A DNA stretch of 64,000 nucleotides from Candidatus Pacearchaeota archaeon (GTDB taxonomy: Archaea > Nanobdellota > Nanobdellia > Pacearchaeales > UBA284), in contig CP061211.1 of assembly GCA_026016245.1 (NCBI GenBank), positions 424,879-488,878 of the forward strand, given 5' to 3'. The translations under genes and the position numbers were made by a program. Shown here in pieces: positions 9,657 through 49,275 of this stretch (the stretch's first letter is position 1; the number at the start of each line of letters is the position of its first letter). Below the pieces are notes generated by a model. The model saw only the letters and a list, made by a program, of their open reading frames with translations, was not told the DNA's origin and made no database searches.

Positions 9657-9914
9657 TTATTTTATCTCGCAATCAGTATTAATTGCTTGCCCTGGCAGAC
9701 CTTTTTCAAATACTACTCTAAGAAGCCCCTTATTCCCGTGTGATGCAGTTATCTTACCTTTAATTATTTTTCCTGCTGGGCTTTTCCACTCAACTTCCTT
9801 ACCCAAATATTTTTCTGCATCTTTCTTGTTTTTTACTTTTTCAGTCTGGATAATAAATTGTCTTGGTTTATAAGTGTGCCTTCCACGTCTAAAACTTACA
9901 ACTGTCGCTTTCAT
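9657..9914 (-). CDS. rpl35ae: 50S ribosomal protein L35Ae
   Basis: FRRGRHTYKPRQ...GKEVEW...GKIIKGKITASHGNKGLLRVVFEKGLPGQAI. Confidence 0.8.
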   Translation of the reverse strand: MKATVVSFRRGRHTYKPRQFIIQTEKVKNKKDAEKYLGKEVEWKSPAGKIIKGKITASHGNKGLLRVVFEKGLPGQAINTDCEIK

Positions 9915-9915
9915 T

Positions 9916-11736
9916 TTAAAAAATCAACTCAAACTTTCCAAAGATCTTTCTAAGTGCATCTACCAATTCTGGAGAAATTCTTTTTTCGATTTTCTCTTTC
10001 TTTGCTGTGGCTTTTCTAAGTTCCTCTTTTGTGGCATCTGTAACCTTGCCATCTTTAAATTTCTTTATTCCATCTAGAGTTATGTCAGGGATAATGAAGG
10101 TGATATCTTTAAACAAGAATATCTCTCCTTTTTTCCTAACCTCCTTCCTTTCCTCGTTTGTTTTATAAATCAATATTATTCTATGTTTTTCTGCTTCAAG
10201 AAGTTCACGTCTTTGGCTATATTCTGTAAGCGCTAATGTCAATTGATAAGAAGCTTTTCTTACTTCAGAAAGGTCTTGTTTTGTTATTTTTCCTTTCTTA
10301 TATTTTTTCTTGGCATCTATTATCTCTTTCAAATATATGAGATTTCTTGGAGAAAGCTTTGATTTTTTAATTAACTCATTTTCAAATTTTTTGACTATGG
10401 CTGCTTCTCCACCTTTTCCTAAAATTCCTTTCATGAGCTTAAGGGTAGTATCATATATCTGTAGAATCTCTATCTCACCAGCTTTTTTCTCTATCTGCTT
10501 CATCAATTCTTTAAGTCTTTTGATATATTCTGAAGATTGTTTCAAGAGTATATCTATTTCCCTTCCACTAATTGTTTTTATCTCTTCATGCTCATATTTT
10601 TTATAGATATCAATTATTTTCTCCAGGATATTGATATATTTTGGTTCAAGAAGTTTTTCCTTCTCAACAAAAACTCTTCTCATTAATTTTACTGCTTCTT
10701 TAGGTACTGGGGGAGCAAGACCATATAACATTAAAGCTGCTTGACTTGGTGTAATGATGCCCCAATAGATATCTTCAGTAACAATATCATTCAACTTTCT
10801 CTGTACATTTTTAGCTACTCTCTCACCAAGACTCATGAACATATCTATAGCCTCAGGACTTGGTTTAATCTTGCCCATCTTAAGGAGAAGTTTCCATGGC
10901 ATGAAAGCTCCTCTGTCATAAAGAGGAACACCATCACGAATGAATGTAAAAATTACAGGATGTGCATCTTTTACTGCTTCCCAGAACTCTGTCAATATAT
11001 AAATCTGAGGATTTAACTTGTTCTCTACTCCAGCTATCTCACTTGCTTCCATAGTGTAGCTGTAAATTATAGCCCTCAATTTCTCTTTTAACTCATATCT
11101 TGACATTCTTTTAACGTCTGTATCATCTATAACCACAAAAATATCAACATCACTCGTCTTTGTTGCATCTCCCCTAACTAAAGAGCCAGCAAGAACATAA
11201 CTAACAACATACTTCTCAAACTTTTTTAGGACAAGAGTTTTATGAATAGAGGATGCTCTTAGTGCACCTAAAATACCTTTATCACATAAGGGGAAAGACA
11301 TGGCTATTGCCTCTATTAAAGCATATTTTCCATCAAAACATGTTTCCCAAACCTGCTTTATGTTCTTGATATGAAGCCACACTCTTGGTTTCATGCCTTG
11401 AATGAGTCTTATTCCCTCTACCTTTATCTTGCCTACTTCCTTGGATTTTTCTTCTGGGACTATGATAACAACATGGATTATTCTTTCATCTTTTTCTTTT
11501 TCCACCTCTTCTTCCTCTTCTATTATTTTTGCAGCTGGAGGGGGTAGAATTCCTATAGCAGAAATATAAGGGAATTTTTTTATTAGAGCCTTCTTGAAAT
11601 CCTTTAAATTGTCTCTAATTCTTTCTATCTCTTTTTTAACTTCCTTTGGGATTTGTTTCTCAATATCCCCAATTTTTTCCATTTCATACTTCTTTCCCTC
11701 TTTGTTTTTTTCAGTTTTTTTCTTCATTTTCCTCAA
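9916..11736 (-). CDS. nucleotidyltransferase-domain protein (Pol-beta superfamily), 606 aa, function unknown
   Basis: AGSLVRGDATKTSDVDIFVVIDD (GS-x9-D-x-D) near residue 185; long helical K/E-rich C-terminal region. Confidence 0.5.
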   Translation of the reverse strand: MRKMKKKTEKNKEGKKYEMEKIGDIEKQIPKEVKKEIERIRDNLKDFKKALIKKFPYISAIGILPPPAAKIIEEEEEVEKEKDERIIHVVIIVPEEKSKEVGKIKVEGIRLIQGMKPRVWLHIKNIKQVWETCFDGKYALIEAIAMSFPLCDKGILGALRASSIHKTLVLKKFEKYVVSYVLAGSLVRGDATKTSDVDIFVVIDDTDVKRMSRYELKEKLRAIIYSYTMEASEIAGVENKLNPQIYILTEFWEAVKDAHPVIFTFIRDGVPLYDRGAFMPWKLLLKMGKIKPSPEAIDMFMSLGERVAKNVQRKLNDIVTEDIYWGIITPSQAALMLYGLAPPVPKEAVKLMRRVFVEKEKLLEPKYINILEKIIDIYKKYEHEEIKTISGREIDILLKQSSEYIKRLKELMKQIEKKAGEIEILQIYDTTLKLMKGILGKGGEAAIVKKFENELIKKSKLSPRNLIYLKEIIDAKKKYKKGKITKQDLSEVRKASYQLTLALTEYSQRRELLEAEKHRIILIYKTNEERKEVRKKGEIFLFKDITFIIPDITLDGIKKFKDGKVTDATKEELRKATAKKEKIEKRISPELVDALRKIFGKFELIF

Positions 11737-11788: not shown

Positions 11789-11861
11789 GGGCCTGTGGTC
11801 TAGTGGTTACGACGCCACCCTTACAAGGTGGAGGTCCCTGGTTCGATCCCAGGCAGGCCCA
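11789..11861 (+). tRNA. tRNA-Val (anticodon UAC)
   Basis: Acceptor GGGCCUG/CAGGCCC, anticodon stem CCACC/GGUGG, loop CUUACAA, T-loop UUCGAUC. Confidence 0.85.
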
Positions 11862-11876
11862 TAAAAAGACACAAAA

Positions 11877-12563
11877 ATGTTCATAAAAAAGATTTTTCAA
11901 AACAAGGTTGATGAAACTGTACATAAACAATTCATAAGATTTGGTAAAGGGGAGTTTGGAAGCAAAGCTATAATAAATATAAGAAAAACTAGTGTGGTAA
12001 AGCTAACAACAAGTTTTGAACTAGCTGGGGATATCATAATTTTCATCAGTTCTCTTGCTCCATGGTTTAGAGTTGAGGGACTCTTGTCCAACAGGGAGCA
12101 GATTCCTTGTTTTGAAGGAAAGAAGAAAAAAGGGCTTTTTGTTTATAATATAGCAAAAGAGTTGAGAAGTGAAGAACTTAGAGATCTTGTATTAAAATCA
12201 TATCCTACTTTACTTGATTGTATTTCTGGAGATGAAAGTATAAACTTGAAGATAAAAAAGAGGATTCCAAAGCCAGGCAAGAAAACTGAAGCTAAAGTTG
12301 ATGATAAGTTTTGTCAGTTAAATCTTGATGCCAAATACTGGCCACAATTACATAATGAGTTTTTATTTGATCTGCCTTTTGAGATAAAGAAAGCAAGAAT
12401 AGTGCATACTTTCATCATCAAAGATATAAAGATTCCGAAAGAGCTGGAAAAAGAGGGGGATTATGAAAAAATTAGGTTGGGGGCCAAGCGAATTGGAAAG
12501 GTGATAAGGAAGGTCGTTGTAGACGGTAAAGAGATAGTAAAAGAGAAGGATTTTATAGCATAA
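11877..12563 (+). CDS. hypothetical protein
   Basis: 228-aa ORF immediately upstream of the L3 operon. Confidence 0.35.
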   Translation: MFIKKIFQNKVDETVHKQFIRFGKGEFGSKAIINIRKTSVVKLTTSFELAGDIIIFISSLAPWFRVEGLLSNREQIPCFEGKKKKGLFVYNIAKELRSEELRDLVLKSYPTLLDCISGDESINLKIKKRIPKPGKKTEAKVDDKFCQLNLDAKYWPQLHNEFLFDLPFEIKKARIVHTFIIKDIKIPKELEKEGDYEKIRLGAKRIGKVIRKVVVDGKEIVKEKDFIA

Positions 12564-46699: not shown

Positions 46700-46714
46700 T
46701 TTGAAATTAAAAAA

Positions 46715-46788
46715 CGCTCCCGGTGGGAGTTGAACCCACAACCTACAGCTTAGGAGGCTGTCGCGCTATCCAATTGCGCCACGGGAGC
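46715..46788 (-). tRNA. tRNA-Arg (anticodon CCU)
   Basis: Anticodon stem ACAGC/GCUGU, loop CUCCUAA. Confidence 0.85.
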
Positions 46789-46789
46789 A

Positions 46790-46873
46790 TGCGGGAGACA
46801 GGATTCGAACCTGCGTAGGCACTAAGCCAATGGATCTTGAGTCCATCCCGTTTGACCACTCCGGCACTCCCGC
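46790..46873 (-). tRNA. tRNA-Leu (anticodon CAA)
   Basis: Anticodon stem AUGGA/UCCAU, loop CUCAAGA; long variable arm. Confidence 0.85.
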
Positions 46874-47063
46874 ATAATAGAATTAGTTATTCTTTACTTA
46901 TAAAATTTTAGAAACAGTTATAGAAGGTAGAAAGGATCTAGGTAATCTTCCGAAGAAGATATTAAGTAAGCACCGAAGTGCCATACTGCAAATCCTAGAT
47001 TATCCCCACCTTCTCTTCTTGTGGGAGTTTTTATTTATTTAAAATTTTTGGTATTAGAAAAGA

Positions 47064-49191: not shown

Positions 49192-49275
49192 TGCGGAAGA
49201 CAGGATTCGAACCTGCGTAGGCACTAAGCCACATGGACCTTAGCCATGCCCGTTTGACCACTCCGGCACTCCCGC
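49192..49275 (-). tRNA. tRNA-Leu with apparent anticodon AAG (A34, unusual for archaea)
   Basis: Identical to the tRNA-Leu(CAA) at 46790..46873 except one acceptor base and the anticodon stem-loop: stem CAUGG/CCAUG, loop CUAAGGU. Confidence 0.7.

Follow-up and report, generated by a model that had tools for sequence, protein, structure and literature searches.

A duplicated MNT-HEPN fusion protein from a conserved translation-gene block of DPANN archaea, a candidate domesticated nucleotidyltransferase

To which family does a large nucleotidyltransferase (NTase) belong when its gene lies among the ribosomal genes of a Candidatus Pacearchaeota archaeon, and what might such an enzyme modify? The question is raised by a 64,000-nucleotide (nt) stretch of contig CP061211.1 (the window). 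Its G+C content is about 31%, and its gene content is archaeal, including the ribosomal proteins L35Ae, L37ae, L11, L3 and L4, prefoldin, SepF and Dph2. The ORF-finder list gave an open reading frame (ORF) of 606 amino acids (aa) at 9916..11736 on the minus strand, with a TTG start. The architecture of the encoded protein is an MNT-HEPN fusion in the order NTase', NTase, HEPN and HEPN', followed by a small C-terminal domain, where the primes mark degenerate copies. The gene is tentatively regarded as a domesticated MNT-HEPN module, similar to type VII toxin-antitoxin (TA) systems, which would now serve as an active, single-site, translation-linked housekeeping NTase of Nanoarchaeota-type DPANN. 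This reading is given somewhat less than an even chance.

The ORF is confirmed as a real gene and not a chance reading frame. More than 4,900 database proteins matched it in a protein sequence search; the top 120 have lengths close to 600 aa and identities from 51 to 100%. Translation more probably starts at the ATG at 11727, because a GAGG lies 3 bases before it, a candidate TATA-like box (TTTAAAAA) also precedes it, and the resulting protein of 603 aa has the same length as the NCBI model P0001 (on a 710-kb Pacearchaeota contig) and is 100% identical to it. The TTTAAAAA box, a putative promoter element, lies inside the 52-nt spacer that separates the TTG start (11736) from a divergent tRNA-Val gene. 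All residue numbers refer to the 603-aa protein. The 606-aa Pol-beta-type NTase proposed in a sequence-only reading of this DNA is real and has an intact active-site motif, and its more probable length is 603 aa.

The Pfam search matched PF01909 (NTP_transf_2) with 34.9 bits against a cut-off of 21, and PF18765 (Polbeta) with 28.8 against 26.9. The motif GSLVRGDATKTSDVDIFVVID occupies residues 181-201 (184-204 in the 606-aa ORF) and follows the MNT pattern hG[GS]x9-13Dx[DE], as G181-S182 x9 S192-D193-V-D195. It starts about 180 residues into the chain, which bears out the earlier claim that it lies near residue 185 and far from the N-terminus. Nearly all of about 325 family members retain the form GS..SD[VIL]D..DDTD.

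The AlphaFold2 model was built from 40 homologues and has a mean predicted local distance difference test score (pLDDT) of 79 and a predicted template modelling score (pTM) of 0.48. It shows an alpha/beta domain at about residues 28-150, a second one at about 152-271 that contains the motif, helices at 291-514, and a small beta-sheet and helix domain at about 515-603. Both the alpha/beta NTase fold and the helical-bundle HEPN fold were found, and the secondary-structure order in residues 28-152 is the same as that in the catalytic domain. The HHalign analysis, with profiles of about 270-297 diverse family members, aligned residues 40-152 with the catalytic residues 153-275 over the whole length (102 columns, probability 99.1%, E 1.4e-18), and residues 285-385 with 386-512 (probability 96.5%, E 8e-10); cross-domain controls gave 0.5%. 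An earlier HHalign run with 40 close sequences had given weak internal-repeat scores (E 0.002 and 0.0095). The N-terminal region is not a simple extension, a case raised in the sequence-only reading, as HHalign identified the first 150 residues as a degenerate second NTase domain. The long K/E-rich region noticed after the motif is indeed helical (291-514 in the model), but it consists of a HEPN domain and a degenerate HEPN-like copy.

The fold search of the model returned KNTase (10.5), the HEPN protein AF0298 (10.3), HalB (9.8), ANT(3'')(9) (9.5), an MNT antitoxin (8.7), DrrA (8.4) and GlnE (8.3), together with further HEPN proteins and toxins. Since KNTase, HEPN proteins, an MNT antitoxin and toxins are among these matches, the protein is recognized as an MNT-HEPN fusion. 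The JGI annotation of some relatives ('predicted nucleotidyltransferase/UPF0332') also hints at this composition. A sequence search of the PDB with the protein and with the 40-sequence profile gave nothing significant, and the best match was the DrrA motif (E 0.057). The statement that no NTase family could be named is correct insofar as no Pfam or NCBIfam model spans the entire protein, but the protein can be named as an MNT-HEPN fusion.

The structural matches raise the alternative of a small-molecule nucleotidyltransferase of the ANT/KNTase/Lnu type, which would inactivate antibiotics or activate a metabolite or cofactor. The two-domain fold of these enzymes (NTase plus helical domain) is present here, whereas family-level membership in NCBIfam is lacking: ANT(9) scored 19.5 bits against a cut-off of 340, and ANT(4')-II 13.4 against 350. 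The extra duplicated domains, the universal conservation in organisms of minimal metabolism, and the operon partners, which are translation genes, also argue against this alternative, and it is considered very improbable.

Conservation was assessed in a divergent set of 51 sequences and in about 325 aligned members, and the family core is very highly conserved. The near-invariant residues of the NTase part are G181, S182, S192, D193, D195, D201-D202-T203-D204, Q241, W249, R264-D265-G266, D271 and G273; those after the NTase domain are W278-K279, G285, P289, E292, Q329, K376 and E379. The alignments show that the predicted catalytic residues are kept by the second NTase domain only, and the conserved motif by the first HEPN-type bundle only. 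As each domain type is present once in an intact and once in a degenerate form, the protein resembles an MNT2:HEPN2 (or KNTase-dimer-like) assembly made as a single chain, with one predicted active site.

Yx4H (Y-K-x-x-E-H) stands at the position of the HEPN motif in the window protein, as it does in 115 of the 120 relatives closest to it, so that the Rx4-6H ribonuclease (RNase) motif is absent from the window protein (Y375-x4-H380). Of 54 Nanopusillaceae-type sequences, 42 have the canonical Rx4H (R-K-x-x-E-H), and so do 41 of the 94 aligned representatives at 50% identity. Family-wide, K376 and E379 are better conserved than the motif Arg or His. The universally conserved catalytic feature thus appears to be the NTase site, and the RNase arginine seems dispensable in the window's clade. 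The loss of this arginine there makes it unlikely that the conserved activity is RNA cleavage. The features of the gene and its two neighbours are collected in Table 1.

Table 1. Positions in the window of the MNT-HEPN fusion gene, its predicted parts and its flanking genes
Feature	Positions	Strand	Remarks
rpl35ae (eL33)	9657..9914	-	ATG 1 nt past the NTase stop codon; conserved downstream partner
MNT-HEPN fusion gene	9916..11727	-	603 aa; stop codon 9916-9918; alternative TTG start 11736
C-terminal domain, residues 515-603	9919..10185	-	variable beta-sheet and two helices; no assignable fold
Second, degenerate HEPN-like helical bundle, residues 386-514	10186..10572	-	without motif
HEPN domain, residues 291-385	10573..10857	-	helical bundle
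Y375-K-K-Y-E379-H380	10588..10605	-	at the HEPN Rx4H position; Arg replaced by Tyr in the window's clade
Catalytic MNT domain, residues 153-275	10903..11271	-	second alpha/beta domain, carries the motif
Active-site motif G181-S182...S192-D193-V-D195...D201-D202-T203-D204	11116..11187	-	near-invariant in the family
Degenerate NTase-like domain, residues 28-152	11272..11646	-	copy of the catalytic domain without the GS and DxD motifs
N-terminal tail, residues 1-27	11647..11727	-	variable, K/E-rich, predicted disordered (pLDDT <50)
GAGG	11731..11734	-	Shine-Dalgarno-like; precedes the ATG at 11727
TTTAAAAA	11758..11765	-	candidate archaeal TATA-like box, 31-38 nt before the ATG; read from sequence
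tRNA-Val(TAC)	11789..11861	+	divergent upstream neighbour; 52 nt from the TTG start

The gene neighbourhood was compared in 83 related loci, a set biased to relatives of at least about 48% identity plus a few distant ones. With the window genes as tblastn queries, rpl35ae was found downstream on the same strand in 64 loci, and the other window neighbours (L11, L37ae, prefoldin, SepF, Dph2, the L3 operon and a 228-aa ORF) were found only in the 5-12 closest loci. Clustering of all ORFs placed L35Ae and uL16 (L10e) in 54 of the 83 loci each, always downstream on the same strand; the next neighbour family reached 15 loci. At the ORF level, at least 19 loci have rpl35ae as the very next gene after the NTase gene, and the distance between the two is -17 to 188 nt. 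It also lies 31 nt after the NTase gene of Nanobdella, where the rest of the locus is unlike. Among the 77 loci whose flanks were long enough, at least 50 have a tRNA-Val(TAC) gene upstream, and 26 of these genes are divergent and within 250 nt. Since rpl35ae, uL16 and tRNA-Val recur while the other neighbours change, the conserved block consists of tRNA-Val, the NTase gene, rpl35ae and often rpl10e, and this is the context of the translation apparatus, not a variable island. The NTase gene and rpl35ae are probably co-transcribed. The location between rpl35ae and tRNA-Val that had been described earlier was confirmed, and both adjacencies are conserved in related genomes, so the ribosomal neighbourhood is meaningful.

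The conserved adjacency of tRNA-Val(TAC) and ribosomal-protein genes also fits an RNA-directed enzyme. The HEPN pair would bind (and in Rx4H lineages cleave) a tRNA or rRNA end, and the MNT domain would extend an RNA, possibly a tRNA, with nucleotides at its 3'-OH, so as to tail, repair or mark it. The Nanopusillaceae and roughly half of the clusters at 50% identity retain the Rx4H motif, and tRNA, mRNA and rRNA are all digested by type VII HEPN toxins (PMC11586414). Moreover, a 3' CCA is encoded in none of the window's five tRNA genes (8757-8831, 11789-11861, 46714-46874 and 49192-49275), so the organism needs 3'-end nucleotide addition, and a weak, sub-threshold Pfam match to the poly(A)-polymerase palm domain was obtained (E 0.0056). 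However, the nearest structural relatives modify proteins or small molecules and not RNA 3' ends, no RNA-binding domain was recognized in the protein, and its C-terminal domain is without an assignable fold. The replacement of the RNase arginine by Tyr in nearly all close relatives also speaks against an RNA-directed activity, as does the single HEPN motif per chain, whereas HEPN RNase sites normally need two. Such an activity, which includes the RNA tailing or modification suggested in the sequence-only reading, is unlikely, although it keeps some weight.

The tRNA genes without an encoded CCA, one of them adjacent, would also suit a divergent CCA-adding enzyme with an N-terminal extension. 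A class I CCA-adding match, the case that the sequence-only reading had set against its own view, was looked for and found no family or fold support. The Pfam matches are limited to generic NTase domains, and the NTase domain is followed by HEPN and not by the neck, body and tail of CCA enzymes; the class I layout, in which the catalytic head is N-terminal, is not seen. Furthermore, high-quality DPANN genomes were reported to have class 1 CCA enzymes, with class 2 enzymes in a Pacearchaeota clade (preprint 10.64898/2026.05.29.728689). This alternative is extremely improbable. The poly(A) polymerase and cGAS/OAS identities were rejected, as no family or fold support was found for them.

Relatives of the protein are widespread in DPANN archaea. 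A pattern scan with one genome per species found that at least 596 species-level genomes encode a relative, and the 80 genomes listed are all named Pacearchaeota, Woesearchaeota, Nanoarchaeota, Nanoarchaeia or plain 'archaeon'. A search of 1.84 billion cluster representatives gave 233 clusters at E <1e-30. One divergent branch is formed by the Nanopusillaceae, including the cultured Nanobdella aerobiophila (P0288) and Nanopusillus acidilobi, with proteins 34-38% identical to the window protein; P0288 is mis-named 'DNA polymerase subunit beta'. The few non-DPANN relatives are proteins of about 600 aa (one named Planctomycetes) and fusions of 1,100-1,340 aa with TPR repeats.

In its domain types the protein agrees with type VII TA systems, which suggests an ordinary self-neutralizing TA or anti-virus module, namely a fused HepT/MntA like FhepTA with a HEPN RNase restrained by self-AMPylation. 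Fused MNT-HEPN TA proteins do exist (PMC13000451), weak PADLOC matches to PDC-S09 (E 6e-7) and PDC-M05A were obtained, and distant homologues lie on bacterial-type contigs in integrase-flanked cassettes. On the other hand, the length of about 600 aa and the core are conserved over the species genomes of the pattern scan, the gene has a fixed place in a translation-gene block and not in variable islands, and the motif of the window's clade is Yx4H, not Rx4H, with no Tyr after the His. Conservation of this kind has already been called atypical for TA modules (PMC6393860). An ordinary TA module is thus improbable.

The domesticated, translation-linked NTase remains the preferred reading, and a mechanism can be proposed for it. 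The MNT site would bind NTP-Mg, most likely ATP, via the GS and DxD motifs. The HEPN helix would use K376 and E379, which we take to be comparable to K149 and E145 of kanamycin nucleotidyltransferase, to bind phosphate and to act as the base, and would keep the acceptor in place in the manner of ANT/KNTase enzymes. The chain would fold as an intramolecular mimic of the MNT2:HEPN2 complex or the KNTase dimer, with one composite active site. An NMP (probably AMP) would then be moved to a hydroxyl group on some macromolecule that takes part in translation. As the acceptor, a protein hydroxyl (of its own HEPN domain, eL33 or another ribosomal component) would be the first preference, and the end of a tRNA or rRNA the second. 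GlnE- and KNTase-type transferases, in which HEPN is RNase-dead, probably arose by repeated domestication of MNT-HEPN modules (PMC3710099), and fused MNT-HEPN proteins self-oligoAMPylate (PMC13000451). In its strongest form, the proposal would describe an essentially universal, ribosome- or tRNA-associated enzyme of Nanoarchaeota, a single-chain pseudo-tetramer derived from a TA module, that nucleotidylates (AMPylates) a translation component such as the translationally coupled eL33, or a tRNA or rRNA end; this form is doubtful. If true, translation in these energy-dependent symbionts would be under a control that senses ATP and is specific to the lineage.

Several observations weigh against the preferred reading. 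The placement of the domains in the AlphaFold2 model is uncertain, as its pTM indicates, and this includes the position of K376/E379 relative to the NTase site. The acceptor Tyr of the RX4HXY motif is absent, as the sequence is YKKYEHEE and residue 382 is Glu. The canonical Rx4H is kept by many family members, so RNase activity may matter there. About one quarter of the loci (for example, L085) have no rpl35ae nearby. Moreover, the gene order may have been conserved for the sake of shared regulation with translation genes and not for a direct physical or enzymatic link.

Other features of the neighbourhood were also observed. The 228-aa ORF (11877-12563, plus strand), located between the tRNA-Val and rpl3 genes, is not assigned to any family by Pfam or NCBIfam, and its conservation at this place is confined to the 9 closest loci. 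The L11 gene (8873-9541, minus strand) encodes 222 aa with a C-terminal extension of about 65 aa, which ends in an Ala/Pro-rich stretch and a K/E tail. The extension is reminiscent of a stalk-protein hinge and weakly matches the NCBIfam model 'L11/unknown domain fusion'; the L11 of locus L001 has 217 aa. ARAGORN predicted that tRNA-Arg(CCT) and tRNA-Leu(CAA) abut, with position 46789 common to both. In the related 648-kb genome of L001, a gene of the RNase_T exonuclease family (L001:2143-2769) lies between rpl4 and rpl23 in an otherwise canonical L3-L4-L23-L2 operon, and rpl3 is separated from the 228-aa ORF's homologue by a gene of the Ser_hydrolase family.

In Nanobdella aerobiophila (AP019769.1), a HIT-family hydrolase gene (L084:4457-4978) is located 23 nt upstream of the NTase gene. 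HIT enzymes are able to hydrolyse nucleotidyl adducts, and this neighbour may be relevant or coincidental. A Metallophos phosphoesterase gene (L084:7096-7767) overlaps the end of rpl35ae and is followed by a DEAD-box helicase gene. Metallophos is not a recurrent neighbour in the 83 Pacearchaeota and Woesearchaeota loci; it is present with the bacterial-type homologues and in Nanobdella.

Three loci outside DPANN (L088:2642-7947, L089:6001-11235 and L090:6001-11268) contain a cassette of six genes, in which the homologue of about 600 aa comes first. The order is NTase-HEPN, a Metallophos phosphoesterase, and proteins of about 300, 240, 170 and 85 aa without a family; two of the three cassettes have integrase genes on their flanks. 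The PADLOC scan of the bacterial-type cassettes found no known system and only a PDC-S10-like Metallophos protein, and the cassette may be an undescribed mobile system. The relatives of 1,100-1,340 aa (L086:5854-9876; P0184, P0189, P0192, P0197, P0211 and P0230) have a long N-terminal TPR-repeat region and a core of pseudo-NTase, NTase and HEPN. In L086, a PNP_UDP_1 gene precedes the fusion gene, and four genes upstream there is a homologous Metallophos gene.

In 22 of the 83 loci, a short paralogue of 260-430 aa was also observed; it is encoded on the other strand, 2-5 kb downstream of the long gene, and is absent from the window. Examples are L067:9702-10553, L025:9765-10553 and L080:9825-11003, all on the minus strand. 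It contains one MNT and one HEPN domain, with HKKIxH at the motif position and a very basic N-terminal tail rich in K, S and H, and shares about 30% identity with the long protein over residues 164-412 of the latter.

The new findings include the double-duplication architecture, the K/E-centred motif with the Arg-to-Tyr change in the Pacearchaeota-type clade, the short paralogue, and the bacterial-type cassette. The block of tRNA-Val, NTase gene and eL33 is also new, and its conservation extends from Pacearchaeota to Nanobdella (eL33 only). As minimal DPANN genomes have nevertheless kept this 600-aa gene in hundreds of species, tied to ribosomal and tRNA genes, the enzyme is likely to be biologically important. 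It would be a clear case of a conflict-system module (MNT-HEPN) recruited to housekeeping. The orthologue in the cultivable Nanobdella aerobiophila and the candidate catalytic Lys/Glu pair on the HEPN helix are testable features. A 2026 survey described DPANN as enriched in 'multiple PDCs' (PMC12988326). Defence-system finders may miscall the present gene in DPANN genomes, and a conserved housekeeping gene could add false-positive defence calls.

The family was then compared with known systems. Makarova et al. (2019, PMC6393860) listed the DPANN cluster cls.004259 (NEQ050) as uncharacterized, described it as 'MNT fused to HEPN' in a housekeeping context, and placed it among the priority targets of archaeal 'dark matter'. 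The present family very probably belongs to this cluster, as matched by domain description, DPANN restriction and context and not by the sequence of NEQ050. The MNT-HEPN content, the DPANN restriction, the housekeeping context, and the relatives in Nanoarchaeales (Nanobdella and Nanopusillus) are shared, whereas the one-line description of the cluster does not contain the duplicated pseudo-domains, the rpl35ae/tRNA-Val linkage or the R-to-Y change. NEQ050 is not listed in the supplement of PMC6393860, and a full-text literature search on NEQ050 gave unrelated papers only.

The type VII TA systems HepT/MntA (PMC7641770, PMC11586414 and PMC13000451) also have MNT paired or fused with HEPN. The FhepTA protein (SO_1440), however, has 276 aa, is found on mobile elements, and carries an RX4HXY motif with an oligoAMPylated Tyr. 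The window protein, in contrast, has 603 aa, an extra dead copy of each domain, a C-terminal domain, Yx4H without a following Tyr, and a fixed translation block. The patchy distribution on mobile elements that characterizes type VII systems was not found in the family, apart from the rare bacterial-type homologues in integrase-flanked cassettes. For the CD-NTase/OAS enzymes, the PADLOC cyclase model gave only E 0.013, and none was among the top structural matches. The GlnE- and DrrA-type protein adenylyltransferases showed no significant match beyond the motif (E 0.057-0.68), and their accessory domains are unrelated.

The best full-length structural matches are KNTase and ANT(3'')(9)/AadA, which combine an NTase domain with a HEPN-like helical substrate-binding domain, as here. 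The likeness in sequence is limited to the NTase motif, and the domain order and genomic context of the present protein are different. KNTase works as a dimer, and the duplicated domains of the present protein would mimic such a dimer within one chain.

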